The notes under the pieces were generated by a model. The model made no database searches, had not been told where the DNA came from, and was given only the letters and a program-made list of their open reading frames with translations. The translations under genes were made by a program, and so were the position numbers. Shown here piece after piece: positions 2,082 to 46,729 of a stretch of DNA of 64,000 nucleotides. How positions within the stretch are numbered: position 1 is the stretch's first letter; every line of letters begins with the position of its first letter. Origin of the DNA: Acidithiobacillus sp. (GTDB taxonomy: Bacteria; Pseudomonadota; Gammaproteobacteria; Acidithiobacillales; Acidithiobacillaceae); contig NZ_DAHVHY010000001.1 in the NCBI RefSeq assembly GCF_027322205.1, positions 11,060 to 75,059 on the forward strand, given 5' to 3'.

Positions 2082-3452
2082 ATGCTGCTTACGCCGCCCG
2101 CTGCGCTGACTCCCGTTCTAACGGCCCTGCAGCGAACGGGGGCGCGGGTCCTGGTGGTGGGCGGCACACCACGGGACACTCTGCTCGGTGTGGCCACCCA
2201 CGACTGGGACCTGGAAATACACGGGTTAGGCGAGACCCGTCTGGCCGAATGTCTGATGCCCTTCGGCGCTCACCGGGTAGGTGGCCGTCATGCAGTCTGG
2301 GTGGCAGCCGGTGCGGAGATTTCCCTGCCACAAGCGCCGGGGGGGCAGATCAACCCGCACCTGCCCTGGGCCATCGCCGCTCAGCGGCGGGATTTTTCGG
2401 TCAACGCTCTGGCCTGGGACTGGCAGGCTCAGCGCCTCTTGGACCATGTTGGGGGAGTAGCGGACCTCCACGCCCGGCGGCTCCGCGTAGTAGCGGCCGA
2501 CACTTTTGGGGAAGATCCTCTGCGCGTTTTCCGCGCGGCACGGTTGGCGGGCCAATTGGGTTTTTCTATTGAAGCCCGGAGCGCCACACTCTGCCGCCAA
2601 TTGGCGCCTCGCCTGCAAGAAGTCCCCCGGGAACGCCTACGCAAAGAGTGGGAGGCACTGCTCCTGCGCGGTCGGCATCTGGTCCGGGCCTGGGATAGCC
2701 TCGCCCTTACCGGCGCCATCACCCGATTCCCCGAACTCCGAGCCCTGCAAGCGGTACCCCAGCGCCCCGACGCCCACCCGGAAGGTGATGTCTGGATACA
2801 CACCGGGCGGGTGCTTGCCGCTGCTGGCCAGCTACGCAGCGGCGACAAAACGCGCGACATCATCCTCATGCTTGGCGCTCTGCTGCACGACCTCGGCAAA
2901 GCCAGCACCACCCGGCGCGACCCCCAAGGTCGCTGGCGCGCTTGCGGACATGAACAGGCACAAGTTACTGCCGAGACTTTCCTAAGTCACTACTTTCCTG
3001 GTAACCATCTCAGCCACCAGGTGCTGTCCCTCATTCGCTGGCACGGCGCACCCTACGCCCTGCACCGCGATGGCGCAGGGCGTGCCACCTATGCCCGCCT
3101 TGCCCTACAGGTCCCTGACCGCCCCTTACTGCTGGATATCGCCCTGGCGGATGCACGTGGCGCAGGCATAGAGCACCCCCCCGCCATAGATGTCGCCCGC
3201 AAGGTGTGGCAAGAGATGAACATCTGGACCAGCCTCCCAGACCCGCTACTAAAGGGGTCTGATCTGATAGCACTGGGATTCATGCCTGGACCGCGGTTGG
3301 GTAAGGCACTGGCGCTTGCCCGCGAACTGCAGGCGACCGGTGCTTACCATGACCGCGAATCTCTGATGGCGGCGCTGCATCGGCGCCTGCCCGAACTCAG
3401 TCTCCGAGACGGCCGCGCTTATTCACTGCCGTCATGTTTCCCCACTGACTGA
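2082..3452 (+). CDS. cca: Class II tRNA nucleotidyltransferase with HD domain (possibly CC-adding)
   Basis: GGTPRD..DWD, RRDF, EDPLRVFR, ERLRKE motifs; HD domain HPEGDVWIH..LLHDLGK. Confidence 0.85.
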   Translation: MLLTPPAALTPVLTALQRTGARVLVVGGTPRDTLLGVATHDWDLEIHGLGETRLAECLMPFGAHRVGGRHAVWVAAGAEISLPQAPGGQINPHLPWAIAAQRRDFSVNALAWDWQAQRLLDHVGGVADLHARRLRVVAADTFGEDPLRVFRAARLAGQLGFSIEARSATLCRQLAPRLQEVPRERLRKEWEALLLRGRHLVRAWDSLALTGAITRFPELRALQAVPQRPDAHPEGDVWIHTGRVLAAAGQLRSGDKTRDIILMLGALLHDLGKASTTRRDPQGRWRACGHEQAQVTAETFLSHYFPGNHLSHQVLSLIRWHGAPYALHRDGAGRATYARLALQVPDRPLLLDIALADARGAGIEHPPAIDVARKVWQEMNIWTSLPDPLLKGSDLIALGFMPGPRLGKALALARELQATGAYHDRESLMAALHRRLPELSLRDGRAYSLPSCFPTD

Positions 3453-3663
3453 TGTCTGGTACCTGGACCCCTACCCACCAGTATGGAGCGACGCTATCGC
3501 GGCCATAACCGCCCACCAAACCCTGTCCCTCTGCCAGGTACACATGCCCTAAAAACTTCCTGGCATCCTCACGACTCCGGAAAATAGACCAAGCCACCAC
3601 CCGCGCCATCGGCGTAGTCGAGGGCACCTCCCGTGCTTCATCGAGAAAACTGTCATTGATCAT
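3397..3663 (-). CDS. Small hypothetical protein (88 aa)
   Basis: Good RBS (GAGGAG) about 8 nt before ATG; protein-like composition; fills the gap between cca and rnpB. Confidence 0.65.
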   Translation of the reverse strand: MINDSFLDEAREVPSTTPMARVVAWSIFRSREDARKFLGHVYLAEGQGLVGGYGRDSVAPYWWVGVQVPDISQWGNMTAVNKRGRLGD

Positions 3664-3783: not shown

Positions 3784-3812
3784 CTGACAGAAGGCCATAA
3801 AACGCGTATGCT
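3784..3812 (+). promoter_or_regulatory. Sigma70-type promoter of rnpB
   Basis: CTGACA (3784-3789), 17 nt spacer, TATGCT (3807-3812), 7 nt before the RNA 5' end. Confidence 0.6.
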
Positions 3813-3819
3813 CCGCGAC

Positions 3820-4160
3820 GGAGTGGGCCAGACGACCGCCGCGGAGCAATCCGGGGAGGAAAGTCCGGGCTCCATAGGGCAAGGCGCCGGTTAACGACCG
3901 GGAGGCGTGAGCCTACGGAAAGTGCCACAGAAAATATACCGCCAAGCGCGTAAGCGCCGGTAAGGGTGAAAAGGTGCGGTAAGAGCGCACCGCATTTCCG
4001 GTAACGGAAATGGCAGGGAAAACCCCGCCTGGAGCAAGACCAAATAGGCGTGCAATACCGTGGCCCGCGGTGCACGCGGGTAGGTTGCTGGAGCCTGCGC
4101 GTAAGTGTAGGTCTAGAGGAATGGTCGTCCACGACAGAACCCGGCTTATCGGCCCACTCC
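3820..4160 (+). ncRNA. rnpB: RNase P RNA, bacterial type A
   Basis: GAGGAAAGTCCGGGC, AGTGCCACAGAAA, GGGTGAAAAGGTGCGGTAAGAGCGCACC, GAGCAAGACCAAATAGG, ACAGAACCCGGCTTAT; P1 helix GGAGTGGGCC/GGCCCACTCC closes the ends. Confidence 0.97.
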
Positions 4161-4400
4161 AACTTTACCACCAGCCCCATTTATCCCGGCAGACAGCCCG
4201 GAAATATCCGCAACCCTCATAAAAAATCAACCAGATGGAAAAACAGGGCGAGTAGCGCCCACGCATTCCATGGCTAAAGAAAGAGTATCCTTAAACTCAT
4301 TTTACACCATGTAATCTGATGATTGCAGAAATCCCTTAAAGCACTTTGTTCACTCTTTATAAACATGCTCTAACATGCCGTAATTATTCGTTTTTTCTCC

Positions 4401-28685: not shown

Positions 28686-29307
28686 TTTTGTTCTCCATCA
28701 TCAGCATCCAGCCATATAACCGGTGCAGGCCAAGGACACATGGGTTGCCCCTATCGCTGCTGCATCCAAACTTATCCATAAAACGTTTATAGACGATTTT
28801 TCGGAATTCTCAAGATAGTTCAGATGCAGACGGTAGGATCAGGCGACGGCACAACACTGTTCGGTCCCGATTCAACATAACATATCTGCATGTTTAAACA
28901 CGATTTATGCTAACAAATCTTTTATAGAGCAGACCTTTTTTGCACATCCAGGAAATATCACACCCCTCTTGCAGTAATCTCTAAAATATGAGGCATAAAC
29001 GCACGCGCTTTAGTGATAGGCCCCGCTGGTGCCGCAGTCCTGCCCGTCTGCACCACCACCCAGCAAGAGGTCAGAGAGGGCGCTGGAGCAGAACTTTCTA
29101 GCAGCAGGCCATGGCAGAGGGGGTCTCAGCGGCCCAGCAGCGGGTGTGCTGCCGGCAGACGCGACGGCTTGGGCAGACCTGGCGAGGATCGGCTACCGGA
29201 GCGCTCGTTGATGCCGCCTTGGCTCGGTGAGTGACTCTTTGCTGAAAGAGAGATAATCTACATCGTCACAATAACTCACAGAGTCTGCAAAGAGAATATA
29301 TCAAGAC

Positions 29308-30090
29308 ATGCTAGAAACGATAACACTATGTATTTTGGCAAGTATAATATCCAGCCAAATCGTGCTTACCATGCTAATCCTTTGCCCTCGCTGCAAATTG
29401 ATCAGCCCAAACTTAGTCCGCCTGCCCCAAGCCGCTATCGCACGTCGCGAAATTGCTCTCACCTTCGACGACGGGCCACATGCAGAAATAACCCCGCAAA
29501 TACTAGATCACCTAGATCTACATAACGCCAAAGCCACCTTTTTTTGCATTGGTGAGAAAGTTGCTGCGCACCCGAATTTAGTCGCCGAAATAATGCGTCG
29601 AGGCCATAGCGTAGAAAATCACAGTTATCGCCACAATACGCTTTTCGCCTTCAGCAGCCCAAGTTTATTAGCGAACGACATTGTTAAAACGCAAAAAGCC
29701 ATCGAAGCTGCGACACATGGAACAGCACCACGTTTCTTCCGCGCGCCTTTTGGCTTTCGCAGTCCATTCTTGGGCAGGGTATTACGGCGACTGGGCCTGC
29801 AACACGTCGCGTGGACTCGACGTGGTTACGACACGACATCTCGAAATCCAGACACCGTGCTCCGCCGCCTCAGCCGCAATCTGGCCGCCGGAGACATATT
29901 GTTATTGCATGACGGCAAACCAGGGCTAGTTGTGTTACCCAGACTACTAGAACTGTGTAGCCATAAAGAACTACGTAGCGTGTCTTTATCCATGATATTT
30001 AAGGATGTCGAAACGCCCCCACAAATATGCAACCGTACCATGACAAGTGCTGGCGGTGATCACACACCATCGACGAATGCGCCGAGCTAA
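29308..30090 (+). CDS. Polysaccharide deacetylase (CE4/NodB family), membrane anchored
   Basis: TFDDGP, NHSYRH, RAPFG, DILLLHD motifs; N-terminal hydrophobic helix. Confidence 0.9.
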   Translation: MLETITLCILASIISSQIVLTMLILCPRCKLISPNLVRLPQAAIARREIALTFDDGPHAEITPQILDHLDLHNAKATFFCIGEKVAAHPNLVAEIMRRGHSVENHSYRHNTLFAFSSPSLLANDIVKTQKAIEAATHGTAPRFFRAPFGFRSPFLGRVLRRLGLQHVAWTRRGYDTTSRNPDTVLRRLSRNLAAGDILLLHDGKPGLVVLPRLLELCSHKELRSVSLSMIFKDVETPPQICNRTMTSAGGDHTPSTNAPS

Positions 30091-30137
30091 CTAGTTCAGT
30101 GTAGCTTTTATAGAAAGCGCCACTGGAGGAACGACAG

Positions 30138-31460
30138 ATGACCAAAGAACAACAGACATCAAACGCACATCCTGTGACACACGAATGTGACGTTCTGGTT
30201 ATAGGTGGCGGACCGGCAGGCTCGACGATCGGTGCGCTACTCGCAAAGCGCGGCTACCAAATCACCATACTAGAAAAAGCACATCATCCAAGATTTCATA
30301 TAGGTGAATCCCTGCTCCCCGCCAATTTACCGCTGCTGCAGAAATTGGGTGTTGCCCAAGAGGTAGACCAGATTGGGATGAAAAAATGGGGTGCAGAATT
30401 CAACTCGCCCTACCATACAAAGAAAAGAGAAACCTTCTTATTTGCCGATGCATGGGACAAGTCCATGCCCATGGCCTATCAGGTCAGACGCGCAGACTTC
30501 GATGATATTCTGTTTCGCAATGCGCGCAAAAAAGGCGCGACGACGATTGAGGGATGCCGGGTCCAGTCGGTTGAATTTTTGCCGCACGGAAAAGGTGCCA
30601 TAGTTCATGCCCTCCGCGAAGATGGATCGACAGAAATATGGAAAGCACGGTTCCTGGTTGATGCATCCGGTAGAGATACATTTCTCGGAACACGCTTCAA
30701 GACCAAACAGAACAACCCAAAACATAACAGCTCTGCCCTTTATGCGCATTTCCGTGGGGCACATCGCCTCCCCGGCAGTGAAGAGGGACATATTTCGCTA
30801 TTCTGGTTTGAACATGGGTGGTTTTGGTTCATCCCGTTAGCCGACGGAACTACCAGCGTGGGAGCGGTGGTATGGCCCTCTTATCTCAAAACACGAAAGA
30901 AACCCGTGGAAGATTTCTTTGCGGATACCATTGCCATGTCTCCCGATCTAGCGATGCGATTAGCAGACGCGCAGCGCGTGACCGATGTCGAAGCTACTGG
31001 CAACTACGCCTATATCTGCGAGCAGACCCATGGGGAAAGTTTCCTCATGTTGGGGGATGCATTCGCATTTTACGATCCCGTCTTTTCGTCGGGCGTCATG
31101 CTCGCCATGCAAAGCGCCTTTATCGGTGCCGATACGATTGATACTTGCCTGCGACAACCGCGACGTGCCGCCGCCGCGCTGCGTCACTTTGACCGGAAAG
31201 TTCGGCACGGAGGCAAGGTATTCTCCTGGTACATTTATCGCATGTCACAGCCCACCCTGCGCGATATGTTTATGTTTCCGGGCAATCAGGCACGAACCAA
31301 AGAGGCCGTACTATCCGTTCTCGCAGGAGATATTTTCAATAAAACACCGATTTGGAATTCCCTACGGATCTTCAAAATGGTCTATTACCTGACGTCGCTG
31401 CGGCACCTCGGAGCGTCTTGGGCCGCATACAAAAAACGAAAGGAAAACATCAGGATTTAA
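30138..31460 (+). CDS. Flavin-dependent halogenase-family protein
   Basis: GGGPAG FAD motif, HHPRFHIGESLLP, KKWGA, WFWFIP, GDAFAFYDPVFSSGV. Confidence 0.85.
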   Translation: MTKEQQTSNAHPVTHECDVLVIGGGPAGSTIGALLAKRGYQITILEKAHHPRFHIGESLLPANLPLLQKLGVAQEVDQIGMKKWGAEFNSPYHTKKRETFLFADAWDKSMPMAYQVRRADFDDILFRNARKKGATTIEGCRVQSVEFLPHGKGAIVHALREDGSTEIWKARFLVDASGRDTFLGTRFKTKQNNPKHNSSALYAHFRGAHRLPGSEEGHISLFWFEHGWFWFIPLADGTTSVGAVVWPSYLKTRKKPVEDFFADTIAMSPDLAMRLADAQRVTDVEATGNYAYICEQTHGESFLMLGDAFAFYDPVFSSGVMLAMQSAFIGADTIDTCLRQPRRAAAALRHFDRKVRHGGKVFSWYIYRMSQPTLRDMFMFPGNQARTKEAVLSVLAGDIFNKTPIWNSLRIFKMVYYLTSLRHLGASWAAYKKRKENIRI

Positions 31461-31462
31461 CC

Positions 31463-32527
31463 ATGCGCTTAGATGACGTCATGACAACAGGCACTGGCAC
31501 GCCGCTTACGCTTACTTATGCTCCGGCAGCAGTGGCATTAAACAATGACGCGTTGCGCACAGAAAACATTCTCGGTATCGTGCTGTTCGATAGTCCACTC
31601 GGCGCGGGGATCGGTGCTGACCAAAATAGTGGCATTCTAAAAACCCCCCTGAGCATTTACGGATCTGATGTCTGTGAAATCTGGAGTACCACACAGAGCG
31701 TAATTCCTGGACACTATTTGGATATACGCTATCGGCGCAGCGCAACCCTAACTTTGGGCAGTATCACCCTGGCTATAACATCACCACCTGACGATGGCGA
31801 CAACTTCAGTCCCCCGCCCATTCAGTCATGCGCTCAAGAAGCCTATCAGCAAATATTCACTCTCCTCCAAGAGAGTGGACATCTTCACCTACTCCGCGTC
31901 TGGAATTTTTTACCCGATATCAACGGTGCCACGCACGGCTTGGAACACTATCGCCAGTTCAATATTGGGCGCGCAAGTTCGTTTATTACCCACAACCGAC
32001 TTAGCGAAGAAAGTAGCATTCCCGCCGCGAGTGCTGTAGGGACATCCTCCGCAAATTTAGTCGTACACTTTCTCGCCGGACAGCACAAATCTGTAGCTCT
32101 GGAAAATCCCCGACAGATTAGCGCCTATTGCTATCCCAAAAAATATGGGCCATGCAGCCCTACCTTCTCGCGCGGCGGATGGCTCAAGCTAGATCAGCAA
32201 CATGCCTTATTTATTTCCGGAACCGCCAGCATTGTTGGCCACGACACCTTGCACATCGGTGATGTCGCCGCACAAACCCAGGAAAGCATACGGAACATTT
32301 CTGCGGTTATCGATGAAGCGAATCGCGTCGCCGGGCATCATTTATATAACTTGAACATGTTGAGCTATCGCGTCTATTTTCGCAATACTGCAGACTTAAC
32401 CGTTATCCAAACAGAGCTGAATCGGCTTATCGAACCCCTTACGGAAACGCTCTATATTCAGGCCGATATCTGTAGATCTGAACTCCTCGTGGAGATTGAG
32501 GGCACTGGCGGAGTCGTACACTTATAA
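31463..32527 (+). CDS. Chorismatase, FkbO/Hyg5/XanB2 family
   Basis: RVWNFLPDIN, YRQFNIGR, PAASAVG, ENPRQISAY, FISGTASIVGH, DICRSELLVEIEG. Confidence 0.88.
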   Translation: MRLDDVMTTGTGTPLTLTYAPAAVALNNDALRTENILGIVLFDSPLGAGIGADQNSGILKTPLSIYGSDVCEIWSTTQSVIPGHYLDIRYRRSATLTLGSITLAITSPPDDGDNFSPPPIQSCAQEAYQQIFTLLQESGHLHLLRVWNFLPDINGATHGLEHYRQFNIGRASSFITHNRLSEESSIPAASAVGTSSANLVVHFLAGQHKSVALENPRQISAYCYPKKYGPCSPTFSRGGWLKLDQQHALFISGTASIVGHDTLHIGDVAAQTQESIRNISAVIDEANRVAGHHLYNLNMLSYRVYFRNTADLTVIQTELNRLIEPLTETLYIQADICRSELLVEIEGTGGVVHL

Positions 32528-32815
32528 AATTAAGAAATACCCCATATCTATTTGCATAATATCATGACAACATTCTCATATGTTCATAAACAGCCGGGTT
32601 AAAATTAGTAATAGTCCTTTTTCTGAAAACGACTGCTTGCAAAGCAAACTATTTATTCCGGTGATTTACTTTTTGACATGTTTCTGGTATACAAGCCTTT
32701 CGTGATTTTGATCCTGAAAAAAAGAGACTGAACTTAAATCGTACTGGCTAATTTAAACCATATTCGATAGATTTAGGTTCAGCACCATTCGACCCATCAC
32801 ACCGAGAAAATACCA

Positions 32816-33262
32816 ATGAAATCAAATAAAAACATCGCCAGACTATTATCTGTCACCTGCCTTGCCTCAGGACTGATCGGCTGCGCAACCCAAGAACATC
32901 AGCCTGTATCGACTACTGCGGCATCCCAGGTCAGTGCCGTAGTGGTAGCCCCTACGGCAAGTACTGCCTCGGCACTGGACAGAGCTGCCGAAAAAACCAA
33001 CGTCCTCCCCACCCCAGGATCGCCATTCTCCAAATTGAAGATAGGCATGTCCCGACGCCAGGTTGAGCAACTGATCGGCTTTCCGGATCACACATCGAGC
33101 CACATTACCGGCAAGCAATTTATTCCATTTTACTTCGGCGGAGACACTCGCCGTACAGAAGCGTCTTATAAGGGCCAGGGTATCCTTACTTATGACAACA
33201 ACTCTCGATTTGGATCAACGGATACTTTGCTTATAATAACGGTGGACACAAATACCCCGTAA
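32816..33262 (+). CDS. Lipoprotein, SmpA/BamE-like domain
   Basis: Lipobox LIGC after a basic N-terminus; KLKIGMSRRQVEQLIGFPD. Confidence 0.75.
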   Translation: MKSNKNIARLLSVTCLASGLIGCATQEHQPVSTTAASQVSAVVVAPTASTASALDRAAEKTNVLPTPGSPFSKLKIGMSRRQVEQLIGFPDHTSSHITGKQFIPFYFGGDTRRTEASYKGQGILTYDNNSRFGSTDTLLIITVDTNTP

Positions 33263-33331
33263 AAAAGACAATGTCTCGTTGTAAATCATACCGACCGGAA
33301 ATCAGCAGCTCCAGCACCAATCGCGAAGCTG

Positions 33332-33360
33332 TTGACACAAATTTTAACTCGTGATAAAAA
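33332..33360 (+). promoter_or_regulatory. Possible sigma70 promoter for the acyltransferase-glycosyltransferase pair
   Basis: TTGACA (33332-33337), 17 nt, TAAAAA with TG upstream; -10 imperfect. Confidence 0.35.
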
Positions 33361-33516
33361 CCAAGAAAATTCAGTTAAGTTATTTAAGATCATTATTTCT
33401 GCTTAAGGTAGCGTCGATGTTGGACGGCATACAGACTAAGGGTCGGATATCCATGCAGATACATACTAATCGGGTGCGGGTGCAGGCCAGCCCATCGCGA
33501 TCAATATCTCTATCCT

Positions 33517-34296
33517 ATGGGCATTATTGATAAAATACGTTCTGCCCGAGAATACGTAGTATTCTACGTTGGTCTCGCGCTCTTGGCGAGCATTAGTCTT
33601 TTATGGTCTATTTTTGCGCTACCCATGAACATTATACTTCCCACAAAGTGGCGGAAGTTAACGGGGCGATGGGTTATTTCCATGGGGTTTAGGCTGTATC
33701 TACGGGCATTATCCGCTCTCGGTGCGTGCCATTTTGATATTAGCGCACTCGATACACTCAGCGATGAATCACCGATGGTCATCGCACCGAATCATCCCTC
33801 CCTGCTCGACGCGGTTATGATCCTTTCGCGCATGCCGCGCCTAGCATGCATCATGAAGGCGGAGTTGGTAGATAATCCATTTTTTGGCGCCGGCGCGCGC
33901 CTGGCCTGTTACATTCGTAATGACGCCATACGCCACATGCTTCACCTTGCCGTGGAGGAACTGCGCAGTGGCAGTCATTTGCTTCTTTTCCCGGAAGGCA
34001 CTCGCAGTCATCCTCTTCCCATCGGAACCATACGGGGCAGCATTGCGCTGATTGCCAAGCAGGCCCATGTCCCCATTCAGACCATATTAATCACCGCAGA
34101 CTCTCCCTTTCTCGGGAAGGGATGGCCCTTCTTTCGCAAGCCAGCCATGCCTATTCACTACCGTATAGAGATAGGCCGCCGCTTCGATCCGCCAACGGAC
34201 GTACGCCGCACCATAGCGGAACTGGAAGCCTATTTTCACTCGGCTCTGCCCGGCGAACCCTGTGCACCAGGCGTCGCGGCAGCAGACGAGTGTTAA
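33517..34296 (+). CDS. Lysophospholipid acyltransferase (PlsC-like)
   Basis: NHPSLLD (HxxxxD), FPEGTRS. Confidence 0.9.
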   Translation: MGIIDKIRSAREYVVFYVGLALLASISLLWSIFALPMNIILPTKWRKLTGRWVISMGFRLYLRALSALGACHFDISALDTLSDESPMVIAPNHPSLLDAVMILSRMPRLACIMKAELVDNPFFGAGARLACYIRNDAIRHMLHLAVEELRSGSHLLLFPEGTRSHPLPIGTIRGSIALIAKQAHVPIQTILITADSPFLGKGWPFFRKPAMPIHYRIEIGRRFDPPTDVRRTIAELEAYFHSALPGEPCAPGVAAADEC

Positions 34297-35060
34297 TGAA
34301 ACAATCCTCCAACACCCACTTAGTGCTTATTCCGAGCTACAACCCCGGGCCTAAAGTATATGAGACCGTGACTGCGGCACGTCAGCATTGGAGCCCTGTC
34401 TGGGTCGTCGTGGACGGGAGCACCGACGGCACGGCAATAGGCCTCCAGGAATTAGCGCGCCGGGATAGTGGATTGCGCATTCTTCTCCTCTCCCACAACC
34501 GTGGCAAAGGAGAAGCTGTACGATGTGGCTTGGAGCAAGCCCAGGCACAGGGCTATACCCATGTGTTGACGATGGACTCTGACGGTCAGCATCCCGCCGG
34601 GGCGGTTCCCGCATTTATGCAAGCATCTGCCGACAACCCTGACGCCATGATCCTCGGCGTACCGGTTTTTGATGCCAGTGCCCCCGCTCTTCGGGTAAAA
34701 GGTCGCAAGATATCGAACTGGTGGGCCAACCTGGAAACATTAGGCGGGGGTATCAGTGACTCCCTCTTTGGCTTTCGCGTTTATCCCCTCGTCCCCCTGC
34801 AGCGCCTCATGCACAAACAGCGCTGGATGCGGCGTTTCGATTTCGATCCAGAAGCCGCTGTACGAATGTCCTGGATGGGAATTCGCATTATCAACTTACC
34901 GGCGCCCGTGCGTTATTTTGAGACCAGCGATGGCGGGGTTTCTCATTTTCATTACCTGCGTGATAATGTTCTGTTGACCTGGATGCATACCCGTTTATTT
35001 CTTGGTTTTATAATACGCCTGCCGATGTTATTGGCGCGCCGGATACGGCAGCAGCATTAG
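34296..35060 (+). CDS. Glycosyltransferase family 2
   Basis: LIPSYN, VVDGSTDGT, NRGKGEA, MDSDGQH, DSLFGFRVYP; TAATG overlap with upstream gene. Confidence 0.92.
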   Translation: MKQSSNTHLVLIPSYNPGPKVYETVTAARQHWSPVWVVVDGSTDGTAIGLQELARRDSGLRILLLSHNRGKGEAVRCGLEQAQAQGYTHVLTMDSDGQHPAGAVPAFMQASADNPDAMILGVPVFDASAPALRVKGRKISNWWANLETLGGGISDSLFGFRVYPLVPLQRLMHKQRWMRRFDFDPEAAVRMSWMGIRIINLPAPVRYFETSDGGVSHFHYLRDNVLLTWMHTRLFLGFIIRLPMLLARRIRQQH

Positions 35061-35087
35061 CTGTCATATGCCCCGCTGTTCAGTATT

Positions 35088-36386
35088 TTAAGTAGCAACG
35101 GCCTCCCCATGTTGCCCATGCACATGGGGTAACCAGCGCCGCAGCAACGGCGTTGTGACGACGGTGCTCACAATAGCCATAATGACCAGCATAGTAAAAA
35201 CATTTTCTGAAATGGCCCCCATATCATAACCCACATTAATGACAATAAGCTCCATGAGTGCTCTGGTGTTCATCATGACCCCAATGATTTTCCCCTGATG
35301 ATGATTCAATCCTGAAATCCGTGCGGCGACATACACGCCAGCAAACTTAGAGATCGTCGCCAATATCAATATTAAACCACACCAAATCCACAAGCCCAGG
35401 CCATCGAGCGCGGCAATATTAGTTCGCAAGCCGGTATAAGTAAAAAATATTGGCAGAAAAAAAACCAAAACGAAAGGGGCAACACGCTCTTGCCATAGCC
35501 TGGAAAAAGCGACTTCGTCATACAATATGACGCCCATAATAAATCCACCAAATATCGTAAATATTCCTAACGCTGAGGTGATCATACCCGAGATTAATAT
35601 GCCCACTAAGACAATCCCCAGAAAAGTCGCAGATATCTCATGCTCGGCATGAAAGTGGCGGATCGCCCATTTCATGAGTGGCCGAACGAAATAAAACCAC
35701 GCCAGGACAAAAAGTAAAACGAAAAATACCTTGGCCAAAAATAAGGGAAATTGAAATTGCGCAAGCGCCAAGGCCGTTACCAGTGCGAGTAACAACCAGC
35801 CCACCACGTCATTTATCGCTGCAGCACTGATTGCGATCACCCCAAGCCGAGATTTTGTTATGCCCAGCTCCATCATAATGCGACCGAGAACAGGAACAGC
35901 CGTAATGGAAAAAGCGGTAGCCACAAAGAGCGCCGAAACCCAGCGGTTTGCCTCCGGAGAAAGCAGAGGGGCGCTCATGAAGCCCACGCCAAAACCCGTA
36001 GCAAATGGTAACAAGAGGCTAGCCATCGCTATCCATAACACTACACGGCGATTGGCTTTTTCCTTAAGATGCGAAAAATCAAATTCCAGGCCGACCTGAA
36101 ACATCAGCAAGATAAGGCCTAACTGGGAAAGGACATCTAACGGCCCTGACGGAATAGAATGGAAAACCCAATGAAAAGGAACGGGCATTATCCAGCCGAA
36201 TAATGAAGGACCCAGCAGAATTCCCGCAATAATTTCTCCAACAACAGTGGCCTGGGCTATTCTAGCAGCAAAGCTTCCCGCAAGGCGCGCGGCCAGAATA
36301 ATAATGCAAAGTTGTGCCAAGGTAAAAAATACCAGACGTTCGGATTGCTGGGTTGCCAAATCCGCAACATGCTTACCAATGGTCAT
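35088..36386 (-). CDS. Cation:proton antiporter (CPA2/Na_H_Exchanger)
   Basis: GEIIAGILLGPS, LMFQVGLEFD, SITAVPVLGRI, AINDVVGW, MNTRALMELIV; about 12 TM. Confidence 0.9.
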   Translation of the reverse strand: MTIGKHVADLATQQSERLVFFTLAQLCIIILAARLAGSFAARIAQATVVGEIIAGILLGPSLFGWIMPVPFHWVFHSIPSGPLDVLSQLGLILLMFQVGLEFDFSHLKEKANRRVVLWIAMASLLLPFATGFGVGFMSAPLLSPEANRWVSALFVATAFSITAVPVLGRIMMELGITKSRLGVIAISAAAINDVVGWLLLALVTALALAQFQFPLFLAKVFFVLLFVLAWFYFVRPLMKWAIRHFHAEHEISATFLGIVLVGILISGMITSALGIFTIFGGFIMGVILYDEVAFSRLWQERVAPFVLVFFLPIFFTYTGLRTNIAALDGLGLWIWCGLILILATISKFAGVYVAARISGLNHHQGKIIGVMMNTRALMELIVINVGYDMGAISENVFTMLVIMAIVSTVVTTPLLRRWLPHVHGQHGEAVAT

Positions 36387-36402
36387 AAAATTGTTTCTAT
36401 GT

Positions 36403-37125
36403 TCATACCATGGCACCATTGACCGATATAATCTGCCCACTGATGTAAGCCGCTTTTTCTGAGGCCAGGAAACCCACGAGATCAGCGACCTCGGCCGGTT
36501 GTCCCGCCCGCCCCATGGGCACCATCTGGGTGATTCGCGCAGCATCAAAAGCCTGCGCACTCATTTCCGTGGCGATAATACCGGGCGCTACGGCATTGAC
36601 GGTAATACCCCGGCTGGCCACTTCCAACGCTAGCGATTTAGTCGCCGCATGTAACGCACCTTTCGCTGCTGCGTAATTTACTTGTCCGCGGTTCCCCATA
36701 AGCGCTGCCACGGAGGTAATATTGATGATCCGTCCCCAGCGGGTGCGGATCATGGGCATCAAGACGGCCTGCGTAACATGGAAAAAGCCGTTCAACGAAA
36801 CATCTATGACCTCCTGCCACTGCTGCGGACTGAGCCCTGGAAAAGCCGCATCATCGTGGATTCCGGCATTATTGATCAACACCTGTATCGGCCCCGATGC
36901 AATCAATTCCTGTACGGACTGGGTGGTCGTCTCGCGGTCGGTAATATCGAAGGCTGACACCACTGCGCGACCGCCAGCGTCTCTGATGGACGCCGCCAAA
37001 GCGGTAGCTTTTATCAGGTTGCGATGGGTATGAATAATGACGTCAAAGCCATCTGCGGCCAGCCTTTGGCAGATAGCGGCACCAATGCTACCGCTCCCGC
37101 CCGTCACCAAGGCACGTTTACACAT
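36403..37125 (-). CDS. fabG: 3-oxoacyl-ACP reductase (cluster-specific FabG/XanH-like)
   Basis: TGGSGSIG, NNAGI, YAAAK, VAPGII. Confidence 0.92.
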   Translation of the reverse strand: MCKRALVTGGSGSIGAAICQRLAADGFDVIIHTHRNLIKATALAASIRDAGGRAVVSAFDITDRETTTQSVQELIASGPIQVLINNAGIHDDAAFPGLSPQQWQEVIDVSLNGFFHVTQAVLMPMIRTRWGRIINITSVAALMGNRGQVNYAAAKGALHAATKSLALEVASRGITVNAVAPGIIATEMSAQAFDAARITQMVPMGRAGQPAEVADLVGFLASEKAAYISGQIISVNGAMV

Positions 37126-37576
37126 CTGGGGCTTCCTGTTTAGCCGCCACGAAAATAATGATCCGACCCTTAACGAGTATATGTCGGTCAGCAGAGATAG
37201 CGAAGTTGTAAAGCAAACTACTGTGGGCAGCGAGTCTTGTTGCACTGACCGCCAAATCGCCCTCGATATCGTCGAGGCGCGTTATTTCCAGACATAATTC
37301 TCGGACACTCGCGAGGTAACCCGCACCGGTCCTTTGAGGTTTACCTCCCTCTTCTCCCCGTACTAATGCATCATGTACAGCCATGGCCTGTGCCGCATAC
37401 TCGACAGCGCAGATCGCACCCAACCGTCCAGCCACCCGCAATGGGTTGCTTGCGCTTCGATGGCTGCTCGCGACACAGAGAATCTGTTCGTCATCCCAAC
37501 GCTCTACGCAATCCAGCAAGAGCATATTGCCTTTATGTGGAAGGTGATCGGAGATCCACTGACGACCTATCGACAC
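37118..37576 (-). CDS. Hotdog-fold 3-hydroxyacyl-ACP dehydratase subunit (ApeP-like)
   Basis: LPHKGNMLLLD, EYAAQAMAVH, GYLASVR; GTG start. Confidence 0.85.
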   Translation of the reverse strand: MSIGRQWISDHLPHKGNMLLLDCVERWDDEQILCVASSHRSASNPLRVAGRLGAICAVEYAAQAMAVHDALVRGEEGGKPQRTGAGYLASVRELCLEITRLDDIEGDLAVSATRLAAHSSLLYNFAISADRHILVKGRIIIFVAAKQEAPDV

Positions 37577-38376
37577 GGCGCCACTTCCAGCACCAGATAT
37601 TGAGAAGGCAAATACACCAATACGATATTTCCGGTATCCTGCCGCGCGATGGATTGCAGCAGCGGCAAACAACCTGCGGCGGGGATAGCTCTGGAGAGAT
37701 CGTCAAGCAGCAGGTCGGACATCGCTTGCCCCGGCAACTCGGCAAAGGGCAGGTCGCCAGCAATCCGAATCTGCGCCAGAGATTTGCCAGGATGCGGCGT
37801 TACCGTCAATAACAATGCAACCGCAAAAATATCAGGTACCGGGCGAACGGCGGATAGCGGAAAAGGATAATCCTGGTCACTGGCCACCAGCAACACAGGA
37901 GTACGGAGCGACACCAGCAGCGATACGGCTTCTAACAGGCCAGCCGCAAAACTTCCATCATAGGCGCTCACCACCGACGATGGTGCCATCGCGCCCGTGG
38001 CAATACCCCAGTAACCAGAAATCGCGTTATGCACGGAATTGTGAAACTGGGTGGGTGATATCAGATGGTCGTCGGCGGCCAGCGCCGAACAAATAGCGTT
38101 GCAGATATCCCCATCGCCACCCGAAGAGGCAAACACCGATGCCGGCTCCGCAGGCAAGACACCCGCCATGGTACAGGCCGCATATCCCACCTGCAGTGCG
38201 GCCATAACCCCTCTGCTGGCCCGGCGTCGTTCTGCCGGGGGCAAGGATTCCGGCGGCGATAATATGGTCTTTCCGGGTAGATAAGCATGTTCACCCTTCA
38301 GTAGACATACGGCCTCTTGCCAGCTTTCCATGCCCGGCCCCAACACACCAATACCTTCCACATACACAGGATGCAT
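37567..38376 (-). CDS. Ketosynthase chain-length factor
   Basis: LPPAERRRAS, SPTQFHNSVHNAISGYW; lacks catalytic Cys; directly after KS. Confidence 0.88.
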   Translation of the reverse strand: MHPVYVEGIGVLGPGMESWQEAVCLLKGEHAYLPGKTILSPPESLPPAERRRASRGVMAALQVGYAACTMAGVLPAEPASVFASSGGDGDICNAICSALAADDHLISPTQFHNSVHNAISGYWGIATGAMAPSSVVSAYDGSFAAGLLEAVSLLVSLRTPVLLVASDQDYPFPLSAVRPVPDIFAVALLLTVTPHPGKSLAQIRIAGDLPFAELPGQAMSDLLLDDLSRAIPAAGCLPLLQSIARQDTGNIVLVYLPSQYLVLEVAPCR

Positions 38377-38393
38377 AGCAATACCCCGGTTCG

Positions 38394-39587
38394 TTAAATG
38401 GGACGGCCAAAAATCAGGCTGCAGTTACTGCCGCCAAAACCGAATGAATTACTTAACACCGTGGAGATCGCACCCCCCTGATTTTGGGAAATGTAATTAA
38501 TTTCCAGCGACTGATCCCGCGGTCCGGTATATGGACTCGACGGCATAAAGTCATTTTGAATGGCCAATACGCATATGGCGGCTTCCAGGGCACCGGCGGC
38601 ACCCAACGTATGGCCCGTAGCCCCCTTCGTAGAGCTACATGGTGTTGCTGTACCGAAGACATTCGCTATAGCAATTGCTTCTGCCGCATCATTCGCCACG
38701 GTGCCAGTACCGTGCAGATTAATATAATCAATATGCTCAGGACCCAATCCTGCAGAGACCAGTGCGCGCTCCATAGCCAGGCGCGCGCCCAAGCCCTGCG
38801 GATGTGGCGAGGACATATGATAGGCATCACTGGATTCGCCGACACCCAATAACCAGACGGCTTCGCGGCCCTGAGGACCGGCCATCCTCTCCACGAGCAT
38901 ATACGCAGCCGCCTCCCCAATAGAAATGCCCGCACGATCACCACTAAATGGTCGACAAGGTTCTTTAGCCAAAAGACCCAGAGACTCAAAACCATAGAGT
39001 GTCGTCGCGCATAAAGAATCCACACCGCCCACCACCGCCGCATCAATCAGACCATAATCCACCATCCGCTGGGCGGAGGCGAAGACCTTCGCACTGGAAG
39101 AACATGCCGACGAAACGGCCACAGCAGGGCCTTCAAGACCAAGCTTACGCCGGACAAACTCCGTAAGGGAATAAGGGCTATGCGTGCCCGCATATACGAA
39201 TTCTGCCGGTAGCTGGCCACTCACTGCGTCACGATGTCGAAACGCCCACTCGGTACGTAACATACCGGCAGTGCTCGTTCCCAAGAAAACACCTACGCGC
39301 CGCCGCCCCCAACGACTGACGGCCGCCTCAACCGCATCGGCAAAACCATCTTGAGAAAGTGCAAGTTGGGCCAGGCGGTTATTACGACAATTGAAGTCTC
39401 GCAGATCGGCGTCAATTTTTTCATCATCAACGCCAGCCACCTCACCAACCCAGGTATCGACGACCATATCGCGGAATGCACAAGGCGCAAGCCCACTCCG
39501 CCGCCCATGCAATGCGGCCAGGGTTTGCTCCAGACCACGGCCAATACAACTTGTAGCGGTCATGCCAGAAATCATCAAAATGGACAT
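38394..39587 (-). CDS. Beta-ketoacyl-ACP synthase (aryl polyene KS)
   Basis: Cys-His-His triad: SSACSSS, HGTGT, KGATGHTLGAAG; SNSFGFGGSN. Confidence 0.93.
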   Translation of the reverse strand: MSILMISGMTATSCIGRGLEQTLAALHGRRSGLAPCAFRDMVVDTWVGEVAGVDDEKIDADLRDFNCRNNRLAQLALSQDGFADAVEAAVSRWGRRRVGVFLGTSTAGMLRTEWAFRHRDAVSGQLPAEFVYAGTHSPYSLTEFVRRKLGLEGPAVAVSSACSSSAKVFASAQRMVDYGLIDAAVVGGVDSLCATTLYGFESLGLLAKEPCRPFSGDRAGISIGEAAAYMLVERMAGPQGREAVWLLGVGESSDAYHMSSPHPQGLGARLAMERALVSAGLGPEHIDYINLHGTGTVANDAAEAIAIANVFGTATPCSSTKGATGHTLGAAGALEAAICVLAIQNDFMPSSPYTGPRDQSLEINYISQNQGGAISTVLSNSFGFGGSNCSLIFGRPI

Positions 39588-39899
39588 ATATATTAAAAAT
39601 CAATGCTGTATTGAAAGCGCATTGTGATGGCGAAGTGACCAAAAGTCAACCGGTTCCCGCTGATCTCGGCCCTTCCCGAGGCTATCTCCGCTGGCCAAAC
39701 CCGCCACAGAGGATGGTGGACGGCACCTTATTCTGGGTTACAATCCCGAGGCCATGCTTGACGAGGGGGGGAGCATCGTCAGAAATGAGCAGAACGGTGT
39801 ACTCCTGGTCAACGCGTGCAGAGAGCAGCAAGGCACGCACACGATCGGCACGCCAGCGGAGTCTGACGTATAACGACAGTCAAAATGGAGATATAAAGA

Positions 39900-40163
39900 A
39901 TGCCCCTTACCCCGGAAGAAGTAGACTTGAGCCGTTTAATTATAAAATCCTTGAACCTGCCAATGGACCCTTTGCAGGTAGATCCTGAGGCCCCACTTTA
40001 TGGCGGCCCACTGGGCCTGGATTCTATCGACCTCCTGGAGCTTTCCATGGTCATCACCAAGAAATACGGGGTAATGTTATCTAGCGAAGGAGCCAATAAA
40101 ACAGAGATATTCAGTTGCTTAAGAACCCTCTGTCATTACGTACAAAATCATCAGGCGGACTAA
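39900..40163 (+). CDS. Acyl carrier protein (XanC-like)
   Basis: GLDSIDLLEL phosphopantetheine site; GGAG RBS. Confidence 0.92.
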   Translation: MPLTPEEVDLSRLIIKSLNLPMDPLQVDPEAPLYGGPLGLDSIDLLELSMVITKKYGVMLSSEGANKTEIFSCLRTLCHYVQNHQAD

Positions 40164-40196
40164 GCACAAGGCTTGCCCTGCACCAAACCACCGCGC

Positions 40197-42563
40197 TTAC
40201 AACGTCTGTTCTATTATTACTGTCCTTCGCTCAGCCAAGCTGGCAGAAAACAAAAGCGCCAATACCACGCCTGGTGCAACAGTGGCGCCGATCGCCTGAA
40301 GGACCGGGACGCCGGAGAACGCCAGAGGCGCAAAACCGATAAGCGTAGCCAGATTGGCAACAACCAGAGATACCAAAGTACGCGATGAGCCTTCGCCGTT
40401 CATCTGTCCACTACGATCAAAGAATAGTGCGTAGTTAGACCCCACCGCAACTATCAACATCAGTCCGATGAGGTTCAAAATATTCAACTCGATGCCCATC
40501 ACCACGAATCCGGCTGCCACCGAAAGTACCGCAGCAATTAATGGTAACATGATTCGAACAACGCGAATCACGGATCGAAAGACTACCAATAATAAAATAA
40601 TAATACCTAAAACACCGGTCAGAGAAAGCTTGAGGGCATTTCTGATATACCCGGAATAAAGCGTATTTGTGGCTCCGGAAATATCGACAAACATAACATC
40701 ATCAACATGGTGCTGCCTCATGACGGCCTGCACGGCCTCAGGGTTGATCTTACCGGATGATGGCGCCATAACCGGTAACAATACACTCCACTCCTGGCCC
40801 TGATGGACAAGCATACTGTCTACAATTTGCCGGATACCTGTTGGCAGCTCAGCATAAGTCAGTGGCGGCAGCCTCCGCTCCCGCTCTACCGCTTGGACAA
40901 ACGGGGAGAGCCGTGATGCTGACACTGGCAATCCGCGCAGCGCTTCTGCCAAACGCGCGGTCAGAATTTTTTTCGGAGGCAAGGCAGATATACGCTCCAC
41001 TTGCGATTCCACACCGGGCAAAAAACGAGTAGGGGTTTGAAAACCTCCGATAATGCCAGAGACTTGGAGTTGTTCTAACAGCGGGTCTATTTTACTGGCT
41101 TTTTCCAGCGCCCGATTACGGGTTGGTCCGGAAACCACTAGCAGATATCCTGCATCAGGTATTCCCATATCCTTACGCAACTTCGCATAGAGTAACTGAT
41201 CGGCTTTAGGAACCGGACTAAGTGCCGACAGCTCGTGACTCCAGATATGATCACGATGGACAACCAAAATGCCACTCGCAATAACTGTCAATGAAATAAC
41301 AACCCATCTTGCGGACGACAGCATACGCATAATGTCGACAAGAATACCACCCATCCGCTCGAAATCGCGCCGTTTAAAATGATGCAAGGGCAAGCTCGGC
41401 AATACAAAACGGGTAACACCCGCGGCGGTGAGTAGGCCGGCAATAGCATAGAGGCCGAGCTGTGCGAGCCCTGGCAGGTTAGAAAACAGCAGACTGGCAA
41501 AACCGGCCACTGAAGTGAACACGCCCAGCCTGATGATGGGCCAATATTTTTTGCTCCATAATTCCGCGCCGGCAGCCATTTCCCCGGCCTGCACGAAGAA
41601 ATAGATTGAATAATCTACCGCCTCCCCGATCAGCGCTGTGCCGAATCCCAAAGTGATATCATAAACCACCCCAAAACCTAAAGACACCGCAGCGATACCA
41701 ACGATAACACCAGACATCACGGGTACAAGGCTGAATGCCAGCACCGCCAGCGACCGGTAGACGAACAACAGCAACATAATAATTAATGTGCCACTTATCA
41801 GCGACATCAACTCTGCGGCATGGATGATCGTATCGCGCGCCGCCACAGAAATCACACCCACACCAGTCAACTGTAACCTGGTGTTTTGGCCAGAGCTCCC
41901 CATGTCCCTTTGCGCCAACCTGAATATCTTTTTTATAGTAGCTATCGCCTGTTGTTGTGCGTCACTATCCGATCCCGGAAATCGCGTCTGCAACACAAGC
42001 AATGCGCTATCTCCGGTCGACGATACCCACACACCATCCAGGACTCGCGGCTTCGCCATTCCACGCATCCCCTTGGCCATGCCAATCATGGCTCCAGTAG
42101 GGTCACTCGGGAAAAGCGCTAGCATTGCCTCACCGCCTGGAGTAGCCAGGTCATTGAGTGTCTTTTCTATCGCATCATGCAGACCTTTTACCGAAAATAG
42201 CTCCGGCTTGGTAGCTGCACTCAACAAATAGCGATGCGCGAACAGATAATTATATATTTTTGAATTAACGCCCGCATTCCCATTACTCACAAATTTAAAT
42301 TGGCTATTTTTACGGAGATCGAGAGCCATTCGCGCGGAAATACGCGCCCTTGCAGCGGCATCGCCGCCATTTATCGCCACTAAAATCTTGCGTGAGAGCA
42401 CACCATTACGCAACTGTTCGTTCAACAGCTCTTGCTGTGCGCTAGGTGATTTTGGCAAAAATTCGGATAGCGTCGACTCAAATTTTGTATTGATGATTAC
42501 GCCAATGGCGCCGATCAGTATCGCCAGCCACACTCCCAGAATCAACCACCGGAATTTTCTCAT
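40197..42563 (-). CDS. MMPL/RND-family lipid exporter (XanM-like)
   Basis: Two TM blocks with GEAVDYSIY and GSNYALFF, two large periplasmic loops. Confidence 0.88.
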   Translation of the reverse strand: MRKFRWLILGVWLAILIGAIGVIINTKFESTLSEFLPKSPSAQQELLNEQLRNGVLSRKILVAINGGDAAARARISARMALDLRKNSQFKFVSNGNAGVNSKIYNYLFAHRYLLSAATKPELFSVKGLHDAIEKTLNDLATPGGEAMLALFPSDPTGAMIGMAKGMRGMAKPRVLDGVWVSSTGDSALLVLQTRFPGSDSDAQQQAIATIKKIFRLAQRDMGSSGQNTRLQLTGVGVISVAARDTIIHAAELMSLISGTLIIMLLLFVYRSLAVLAFSLVPVMSGVIVGIAAVSLGFGVVYDITLGFGTALIGEAVDYSIYFFVQAGEMAAGAELWSKKYWPIIRLGVFTSVAGFASLLFSNLPGLAQLGLYAIAGLLTAAGVTRFVLPSLPLHHFKRRDFERMGGILVDIMRMLSSARWVVISLTVIASGILVVHRDHIWSHELSALSPVPKADQLLYAKLRKDMGIPDAGYLLVVSGPTRNRALEKASKIDPLLEQLQVSGIIGGFQTPTRFLPGVESQVERISALPPKKILTARLAEALRGLPVSASRLSPFVQAVERERRLPPLTYAELPTGIRQIVDSMLVHQGQEWSVLLPVMAPSSGKINPEAVQAVMRQHHVDDVMFVDISGATNTLYSGYIRNALKLSLTGVLGIIILLLVVFRSVIRVVRIMLPLIAAVLSVAAGFVVMGIELNILNLIGLMLIVAVGSNYALFFDRSGQMNGEGSSRTLVSLVVANLATLIGFAPLAFSGVPVLQAIGATVAPGVVLALLFSASLAERRTVIIEQTL

Positions 42564-43240
42564 GGAGTAGACGAATTTCTTATACTAATAAACGACCAAT
42601 CGTGATTTACTTTTACAATTTCAATACTGCGTACCATGTTCCCGATACCACTAACAGCGATATGCTTGATCTGCTTTGCAAACGCATTTTGCTTCGGCAC
42701 CAGAATTAACGTCCAGCTATTTTTGTTGCCTTTTAGGGAAAGCATAAAATGCGTCTCCAATAGCTCCGTATTTCCGGTCAACACCCCGCGAATACTATCG
42801 ACAAAAGCGAGCAGTTCCGGATGATCGTCCAATTGAATAGTATATTTATCCATGGTGAGAACATCGCCTTGCACCAGCATCACCTGATCTCTGGGTTTGA
42901 CGGTGTGCATTTCCAGCGTATCCGGTGCCACAAAGCGCATATTACCAGATGATTGTATTGGCTTATCCAAAAACCCAATATGTTTTGTCTCTACAAAAGA
43001 GGCATGGCTAGACTTCACCTGCGCCAACATATGCATTAACTCTGTTATGTTCCAGTCTGCCGCGGAGGCCGCTTGTGTTAGCATGGAGCCCCCGATGAAA
43101 AATGCGAGAACGGCACCAATGGCATATCGTCTGGGCAGATAGAATATTCGTCGAAGCAGTAGTGATCTGAGAAATAAAATGTTAATACCCGGCGCAGTGA
43201 CCGCGACCGGCGACTCCGGTTGAGCGCGCTCAATACTCAT
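42560..43240 (-). CDS. LolA-like periplasmic lipid carrier
   Basis: FVETKHIGFLDKPIQSSGNMRFVAPD, WTLILVPK; start uncertain but ATGA-coupled. Confidence 0.8.
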   Translation of the reverse strand: MSIERAQPESPVAVTAPGINILFLRSLLLRRIFYLPRRYAIGAVLAFFIGGSMLTQAASAADWNITELMHMLAQVKSSHASFVETKHIGFLDKPIQSSGNMRFVAPDTLEMHTVKPRDQVMLVQGDVLTMDKYTIQLDDHPELLAFVDSIRGVLTGNTELLETHFMLSLKGNKNSWTLILVPKQNAFAKQIKHIAVSGIGNMVRSIEIVKVNHDWSFISIRNSSTP

Positions 43241-44196: not shown

Positions 44197-44198
44197 TA

Positions 44199-44528
44199 TT
44201 AGAGTCGCTCCAAAACATGCCCAGAGAAGTCGCCGGATGCGACCAGACGAGCGCCCGCATGGACTTCAAAGGTCATGGGCAGAGCATCTGCTACGAGCAC
44301 GCGAAGATTCAGCAATTCACCAGGTGCCGCCGTGCTGTAGAATTTCGCCGAGCTAATACTGCAATCATTTATCGGCAAATCTCCCGTTGCGGCTATAGCG
44401 CAAACAATCTCATCCAGAAGCAAGGCGGCGGGCACAATCGGATTTCCCGGAAAATGGCCAGCGAATACTGGGTGCCCAACCGGAATGGTAAACCTATGGT
44501 CATAATATTTCAGACGAACGCTCCTCAT
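44199..44528 (-). CDS. Hotdog-fold dehydratase subunit (ApeI-like)
   Basis: HPVFAGHFPGNPIVPAALLLDEI. Confidence 0.88.
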   Translation of the reverse strand: MRSVRLKYYDHRFTIPVGHPVFAGHFPGNPIVPAALLLDEIVCAIAATGDLPINDCSISSAKFYSTAAPGELLNLRVLVADALPMTFEVHAGARLVASGDFSGHVLERL

Positions 44529-45861: not shown

Positions 45862-45908
45862 ACCTAGAAAAACCCCCTGTTTAAAAAATAAACATCATAA
45901 ATTCCAAA

Positions 45909-46670: not shown

Positions 46671-46729
46671 ATTGGCACGTTACAGCGCAGTTGTTTCAGA
46701 AAGTGATAATGATCCCGCCTGATTCTTTA

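Follow-up and report, generated by a model that had tools for sequence, protein, structure and literature searches.

A loop-deleted tRNA nucleotidyltransferase of Acidithiobacillus: a candidate CC-adding repair enzyme within the E. coli-type lineage

The 64,000-nucleotide stretch of Acidithiobacillus sp. DNA analysed here (contig NZ_DAHVHY010000001.1 of RefSeq assembly GCF_027322205.1; hereafter the window) encodes, at 2082..3452 on the forward strand, a 456-residue protein (P0001) in a reading frame without stops. With motifs A, B and D, the third carboxylate and the fold all present, P0001 is a member of the class II tRNA nucleotidyltransferase/poly(A) polymerase superfamily and carries a C-terminal HD domain, as identified from its open reading frame (ORF), Pfam and AlphaFold/Foldseek. 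It lacks the flexible loop of CCA-adding enzymes, and its sequence suggests that it is probably, though we say so with considerable reserve, a CC-restricted repair enzyme derived from an HD-type (E. coli-type) CCA enzyme by deletion of that loop. CC-adding enzymes that arose from CCA-adding ones by loop deletion, the textbook route, have been known since 2008, mainly from Aquificae, Deinococcus-Thermus, cyanobacteria, some Bacilli and Geobacter. The new element here is an apparently independent origin, fixed in the clade as sampled, within the E. coli-type lineage of a proteobacterial class. The source of the window is an uncultured Acidithiobacillus of the ferrooxidans/ferrivorans group, and the exact protein was met in mine-related and other metagenomes and in contigs of metagenome-assembled genomes (MAGs) alone.

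The catalytic core of P0001 is complete. Motif A reads GGTPRD (residues 27-32) and stands with the catalytic pair D41-x-D43 at 2160..2210 (this and all other features of the gene are on the forward strand); G27, G28, R31, D32, D41 and D43 are invariant in a 29-sequence alignment, as are R102, R103, D104 and N108 of motif B (RRDFSVNA, residues 102-109, 2385..2408), D145, L147 and R148 of motif D (EDPLR, residues 144-148, 2511..2525) and E184, R185 and E189 of the segment ERLRKEWEALL (residues 184-194, 2631..2663), which fits the pattern ERxxxExxxhh. E79 of EISLP (2316..2318), the third catalytic carboxylate, is E or D in all relatives and invariant within the Acidithiobacillus clade. The HD motifs HPEGD (232-236) and LLHDLGK (267-273) lie at 2775..2900, are accompanied by a Pfam HD match and are conserved in the clade except for two deep branches, and the C-terminal 'LGxxPGP' segment is retained. 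The GGTPRD motif noted in the original prediction, and the EDPLR motif and HD domain that it had listed as intact, are thus all present in the translation. Motif D acts as the amino-acid template for CTP and ATP (PMC7014341).

Profile searches capture this protein only in part. Pfam recognizes the end of the head (PolyA_pol, residues 100-135), PolyA_pol_RNAbd and HD (237-334), and the first 100 residues align neither to the NCBIfam CCA models nor to Pfam PolyA_pol. The NCBIfam CCA, PcnB and A-adding models all score far under their cut-offs, with alignments starting at about residue 100: 108.7 bits against a cut-off of 451 for NF008137 (E. coli-type CCA; residues 101-296 alone align), 92.6 against 305.65 for TIGR01942 (PcnB), 52.6 against 702 for NF008634 and 44.5 against 1440 for NF041569 (A-adding enzymes of the DHH/CBS fusion architecture). 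The AlphaFold model (pLDDT 92.2, pTM 0.89) has the complete head-neck-body-tail ('seahorse') shape. Foldseek searches with this model matched every solved class II tRNA nucleotidyltransferase, and the top 46 matches in the PDB are all class II CCA-, CC- or A-adding enzymes or poly(A) polymerases (PAPs), with TM scores of 0.53-0.67; CC-, CCA- and A-adding structures score alike, so that the search does not discriminate between these types for P0001. The closest database relatives are Acidithiobacillus proteins at 96-53% identity, plus one at 44%, and they carry names as varied as 'CCA tRNA nucleotidyltransferase', 'HD domain-containing protein' and 'polyA polymerase'.

The region that sets P0001 apart lies between E79 and R102, the latter encoded from nt 2385. 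There are 22 residues strictly between the two, or 23 counting the Glu, which is the count given in the original prediction. The equivalent interval has 32 residues in the closest non-Acidithiobacillus relatives, 30 in the CCA enzymes of Bacillus and Planococcus, 28 in the A-adding enzyme of Aquifex and, in what we take to be the E. coli CCA sequence, 32; the loop of P0001 is 6-8 residues below those of solved CCA- and A-adding enzymes. Across an alignment of 29 relatives, a gap of 10-11 columns marks the loop in every sequence of the Acidithiobacillus clade, and pairwise alignment of P0001 with its full-loop sister P0040 places gaps of 8 and 2 residues exactly there. P0040 itself aligns without gaps at the loop to the presumed E. 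coli CCA sequence (E. coli loop RTERKSGSGYTGF, 'LARTERKSGSGYTGF...'), with 37% identity over head, neck and HD domain; as the E. coli sequence is a presumed one, this comparison is a lead and not a database fact. The ten residues absent from P0001 would then align with RKSGSGYTGF, which we take to be the E. coli loop. An E. coli mutation described by Zhu et al. in 1986 reportedly abolishes AMP incorporation alone, and we presume that it lies in this same loop.

The next relatives (37-40% identity), from Acidobacteriota, Campylobacterota, Nitrospirota, Verrucomicrobiota and Myxococcota, read 'LPRRESKxGRGHRGFxVxGDPxL' at the loop. The corresponding connector of P0001, PQAPGGQINPHLPW (residues 83-96, 2328..2369), is shorter by the 10 residues of the flexible loop, and the basic/acidic motif R-x-E that precedes the loop has become Q-A-P. 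The original prediction was therefore right that the R-x-E..G.G..GF loop is absent, about 10 residues being missing in comparison with the sister clade. Throughout the Acidithiobacillus clade the Gln of Q-A-P is constant and the residue at the former acidic position changes freely, and the nine residues that remain of the connector are conserved in the clade as PQxxG..[D/N]PHLPW. In the AlphaFold model the short connector has a pLDDT of ~90 and is predicted to be an ordered link and not a flexible loop.

A survey of the spacing between GGxxRD and RRD in ~185 measurable family members places this shortening in context. The spacing is 74-76 in all 31 sequences of the Acidithiobacillus clade and at least 82 in all of the ~155 others but one, L083 from a Myxococcota MAG, in which it is 72. 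A short spacing found in 31 of 31 clade members and nearly nowhere else is therefore not due to chance. A search of 1.84 billion proteins yielded 129 measurable representatives at 50% identity, nine of them with the short spacing, and thus loss of the loop recurs in the family, yet is uncommon.

Loop and R-x-E motif are also lost in unrelated members of this HD-type family, namely in L083, in P0057 and in the representatives P0146, P0151, P0181, P0198, P0217, P0230, P0239 and P0257. The losses outside Acidithiobacillus are independent events, one of them in Agromyces albus, where the protein is named 'HDIG domain-containing metalloprotein', and none of the other short-loop representatives could be traced to an experimentally characterised CC-adding enzyme. 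The Nitrospira versions (L048, L058, L062, L081) have a loop of full length and unrelated sequence, IPSRMLxxDTSLPGLLRQADP, together with an altered R-x-E motif, and might be another lineage with changed A-adding ability.

The original prediction had pointed to a G7 run at the junction, and a homopolymer exactly at this site (nt 2339-2345) is where one would look for a frameshift or an assembly error, or for the trace of a decaying pseudogene. The run is real but incidental. It is strain-specific and synonymous, relatives encoding the same Gly-Gly as GGA GGG or GGC GGA, and frame and length are equal in every species though the G run is not conserved. Moreover, the contigs of four metagenome assemblies cover the gene without an indel, by a single spanning contig in three of them, which shows that there is no assembly error. 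Pairwise dN/dS over the whole gene is 0.16-0.20 for species-level pairs (0.36 for the near-identical pair of the window and L005), and values around 0.2 are not those of a pseudogene. These observations refute an artefactual origin of the short loop, to which we attach practically no credence. By region, dN/dS is 0.11-0.16 in the head, 0.12-0.18 in the neck, 0.14-0.21 in the HD/body part and ~0.26 in the tail; the low values, lowest in the head, indicate that the transferase is maintained by selection. The shortened anatomy, its conservation and the selection acting on it are direct observations.

In two deep Acidithiobacillus-like branches (P0022 and P0131) LLQSLGR and VLAASGR replace LLHDLGK while the transferase motifs are intact. 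The phosphohydrolase seems to be dispensable in some lineages, and it is thus the transferase that persists throughout.

A maximum-likelihood tree of 66 sequences recovers the short-loop Acidithiobacillus clade as monophyletic with 100/100 support, beside a diverse full-loop group and on a stem of 0.81 changes per site, and places the short or degenerate loops of L083 and P0057 at separate origins. NF008137 is the best model for the sister-clade proteins, which score 193-209 bits and align from the N-terminus, as against 109-124 bits for the Acidithiobacillus proteins. The deletion was apparently an independent event within the HD-domain, E. coli-type lineage and is fixed across the sampled Acidithiobacillus lineages.

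A long stem of this kind could also mark a change of job, such as C addition to RNAs other than tRNA or an HD-based 2',3'-cyclic phosphodiesterase or phosphatase activity, with a canonical cca gene elsewhere in the genome. The low scores against the NCBIfam CCA models, with the first 100 residues unaligned, would be in keeping with such a change, as would the fact that other short-loop members, for example from Agromyces and Myxococcota, are unnamed 'HD domain-containing' proteins. However, the catalytic and nucleotide-template residues are all invariant and the head is the most constrained domain, the predicted structure shows the full head-neck-body-tail fold at high confidence, the conserved site of the gene beside rnpB (see below) fits tRNA processing, and the two deep branches without HD motifs retain the transferase motifs. 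We consider a changed job quite unlikely.

Published rules bear on the specificity of P0001. In the sorting of Hoffmeier et al. (2010), a PAP signature assigns a protein to the PAPs and a loop deletion to the CC-adding enzymes, while sRxxxExxxhh points to A-adding enzymes or PAPs, which have a small residue at the position of the first E, and ERxxxExxxhh to CC- or CCA-adding enzymes (PMC2910056). The signature of PAP I is [LIV][LIV]G[RK][RK]Fx[LIV]h[HQL][LIV] (PMC2910056, PMC8208693), and the region of P0001 compared with it, the beta-turn segment RVGGRHAVWV (2274..2303), does not fit; the PAP signature is absent. P0001 combines a deleted loop with ERxxxExxxhh and no PAP signature, as CC-adding enzymes do; its first position is E and not the small residue of A-adding enzymes; and of the features of E. 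coli-type CCA enzymes it has the HD domain, while its NF008137 score stays under the cut-off and the R-x-E motif and the full loop are missing. By these rules, which read the sequence alone, P0001 falls into the CC-adding class.

The same assignment has a mechanistic side. The basic/acidic motif positions tRNA-CC for A addition, and loop deletions, like most point mutations of the loop, block A addition while C addition is kept (PMC7014341). However, loop grafts do not always restore A addition (Tomita review, PMC3925840), and for this reason a short loop, though characteristic of CC-adding enzymes, does not prove one. That P0001 is a candidate CC-adding half, as the original prediction proposed, is thus plausible by the published rules, clade-wide in scope and accompanied by purifying selection, and it does not follow from the short loop by itself.

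We envisage that, in an ancestor of the sampled Acidithiobacillus lineages, a 10-residue deletion took out the flexible loop and that the adjacent basic/acidic motif was lost as well. As the DxD pair, the third carboxylate, RRD and EDxxR are intact and under purifying selection, the enzyme should still be able to bind the 3' ends of tRNAs and to add C74 and C75. The loop would serve as the switch of the pocket from CTP to ATP and the R-x-E motif would position tRNA-CC; with both gone, efficient addition of A76 is most likely impossible. The role would be the repair of nibbled 3' ends, possibly aided by the HD phosphohydrolase domain, and a different enzyme, an A-adding paralogue or else poly(A) polymerase I, would supply the final A.

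A repair role is suggested by the CCA-encoding tRNA genes sampled and by RNase T in a related strain. CCA is directly observed after the discriminator base in all three tRNA genes sampled (His-GTG, Gln-TTG and Leu-TAG in Acidithiobacillus CP127527.1), a sample of three genes that come from a related strain and not from the window's own genome, and no tRNA gene lies in the 64-kb window. The sampled genes thus make a 3'-end repair enzyme likelier than an obligatory maturation enzyme. The original prediction had named as its counter-case a genome with no partner enzyme and with tRNA genes lacking CCA; with three of three sampled tRNA genes encoding it, this argument may not apply. An 88-nt 'tRNA-Arg' reported by ARAGORN within an aminotransferase gene (L087, L088) was judged to be a false positive. 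An IS630-family coding region ends 20 nt downstream of the CCA end of the tRNA-His gene (L095 10001-10644, CP127527.1), and the IS630-family element near tRNA-His occurs at five places in the CP127527.1 chromosome.

Another related chromosome has an RNase T gene (L088 13163-13768, Acidithiobacillus CP080536.1), which matches TIGR01298 with 281 bits against a cut-off of 246. RNase T is described as driving tRNA CCA-end turnover in E. coli (PMC6468291). As this trimming enzyme is present in the genus, repair of A76 should matter there too.

No partner enzyme came to light in the DNA covered. Searches with the family hidden Markov model (HMM) found no second nucleotidyltransferase among the six-frame ORFs of the window, nor within 10 kb of the gene in 80 related loci, and no other PF01743 gene was found in ~300 kb of related Acidithiobacillus chromosomes, sampled by walks that started from exact-protein matches and used a duplicated toxin-antitoxin protein and IS630 transposases to move between sites; the sampled DNA amounts to about a tenth of one genome. 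The two-enzyme system of the original prediction thus has support in part: its CC half is plausible, and no A half was seen in the DNA covered. A literature search that included supplementary tables returned nothing useful on the pcnB gene, the cca gene or the CCA status of tRNAs in Acidithiobacillus.

Several of these results weigh against a CC-only enzyme: the empty partner searches, the small tRNA sample from another strain, the uneven outcome of loop grafts, and the conserved nine-residue connector, which might act as a minimal loop. To these is added the consideration that, if P0001 were the sole nucleotidyltransferase in a cell with RNase T, an enzyme restricted to CC would leave tRNA-CC unrepaired, which would argue that A is still added. 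P0001 could then be a complete CCA-adding and repair enzyme, the only one in the cell, in which the nine-residue connector or some other part replaces the loop. It does have the appearance of a vertically inherited equivalent of the proteobacterial HD-type cca gene, its sister clade having NF008137 as best-scoring model and 37% identity to what we take to be the E. coli CCA enzyme; RNase T is present, so A76 repair should be needed; and no second nucleotidyltransferase was seen in the ~64-kb window and ~300 kb of sampled DNA. A complete CCA enzyme would gain further weight if no second nucleotidyltransferase exists, as it does from the conserved connector and from loop grafts that are not always decisive (PMC3925840). 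On the other hand, loop deletions tested experimentally abolish A addition in every case reported in the literature consulted (including PMC7014341), both R-x-E residues are gone and the acidic position is free to vary in the clade, and the DNA sampled for a partner covers only about a tenth of a genome. We regard a complete CCA activity of P0001 as possible but somewhat unlikely.

Returning to the CC-restricted repair enzyme that we favour, we infer its CC-only activity, its repair role and the existence of a partner from the evidence given above. A stronger form of this proposal, which we hold to be unlikely, is that the only E. coli-type CCA enzyme of these bacteria became CC-only independently, that CCA-encoding tRNAs and RNase T were kept, and that A is restored without a dedicated A-adding paralogue; poly(A) polymerase I with subsequent trimming by an exonuclease would be an example of such restoration.

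The genomic neighbourhood is conserved on the downstream side. The nucleotidyltransferase gene starts 7 nt past the stop of an upstream acyl-CoA synthetase gene and lies ~370 nt upstream of rnpB, the gene for RNase P RNA (3820-4164, forward strand; Rfam RF00010, 341.8 bits), before the mraZ/dcw cell-division cluster; a promoter scan places a promoter-like site at 3784-3812 on the same strand, upstream of rnpB. The pairing with rnpB is found in the window and in four other Acidithiobacillus genomes (L006, L007, L008 and L084, at ~11.7-12.1 kb), and this conserved adjacency fits a role in tRNA processing.

Some further features were noted in and around these loci. An 88-aa ORF on the reverse strand (3397-3663) overlaps the last 56 nt of the nucleotidyltransferase gene; it is called in public assemblies, has no Pfam match and may be spurious. 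Two loci, L034 and L042, have near-identical nucleotidyltransferase and flanking tRNA-Gly genes and are filed as 'Candidatus Uhrbacteria' and 'uncultured Gammaproteobacteria', so that one of these MAG bins is probably misassigned. Farther along the window, at ~29300-46700 between fbp and the upstream genes, lies a lipid or aryl-polyene-like biosynthesis cluster with ketoacyl synthases, an MMPL transporter, an acyl-CoA ligase, a flavin halogenase, a family 2 glycosyltransferase, lipid A-type acyltransferases, a polysaccharide deacetylase and a Na+/H+ exchanger, in which no integrase or transposase was seen.

The change described here occurs in organisms whose sampled tRNA genes already encode CCA, and a CC + A system, given such genes, would serve repair and not maturation. 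If the enzyme is CC-only, one has to ask why a CC-only repair enzyme is kept and who restores A76 after trimming by RNase T. Should A indeed be restored without a paralogue, Proteobacteria would have a type of split repair pathway that has not been described from them before. The clade also provides a variant that lost its loop naturally, and as its nearest relatives with a full loop have one of the E. coli type, loop grafting is straightforward. At a practical level, database names such as "CCA tRNA nucleotidyltransferase" may overstate the activity of the Acidithiobacillus proteins.

Among characterised enzymes, the bacterial CC-adding enzymes of Aquifex aeolicus, Bacillus halodurans, Deinococcus, Synechocystis and Geobacter share with P0001 an intact core, a deleted loop and ERxxxExxxhh. 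However, these have an identified A-adding partner, whereas none was seen in the Acidithiobacillus DNA covered here, and the sampled tRNA genes encode CCA; the solved bacterial CC-adding enzymes are only 16-20% identical to P0001 (Foldseek), and its loop loss looks like a separate event within the E. coli-type lineage. A profile of the Acidithiobacillus clade gives a near full-length alignment to PDB 3WFO alone, including the HD motif (ALFHDIGK) and an 'LGxxPG' segment, while the C-terminal half of P0001 by itself has no match among PDB sequences. We take 3WFO-3WFS to be structures of the Aquifex aeolicus CC-adding enzyme. As 3WFO is apparently the sole HD-bearing enzyme of its class in the PDB, the match speaks for a shared architecture and not for specificity, and the GGxxRD-to-RRD spacing is not comparable with it, given that the Aquifex enzyme has other insertions and ERD as motif B. 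The Aquifex CC-adding enzyme structures come from Yamashita et al. (2014) and are described in the Tomita review (PMC3925840).

The CC-adding enzyme of Schizosaccharomyces pombe resembles P0001 in that its basic/acidic motif is lost or damaged, a change linked in S. pombe to the loss of A addition (PMC7014341); it differs in being eukaryotic, in having a full-length though mutated loop, and in having a known paralogue as A-adding partner. Poly(A) polymerase I (PcnB), another member of the class II superfamily, has similar neck motifs, but it carries the PAP signature and a small residue in ERxxxE and has no HD domain. P0001 itself is thus no PAP, and PAP I is a candidate source of the missing A addition. 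E. coli Cca has the same architecture as P0001, a nucleotidyltransferase head and neck joined to an HD phosphohydrolase domain, and likely shares its role, namely repair in cells whose tRNA genes encode CCA.

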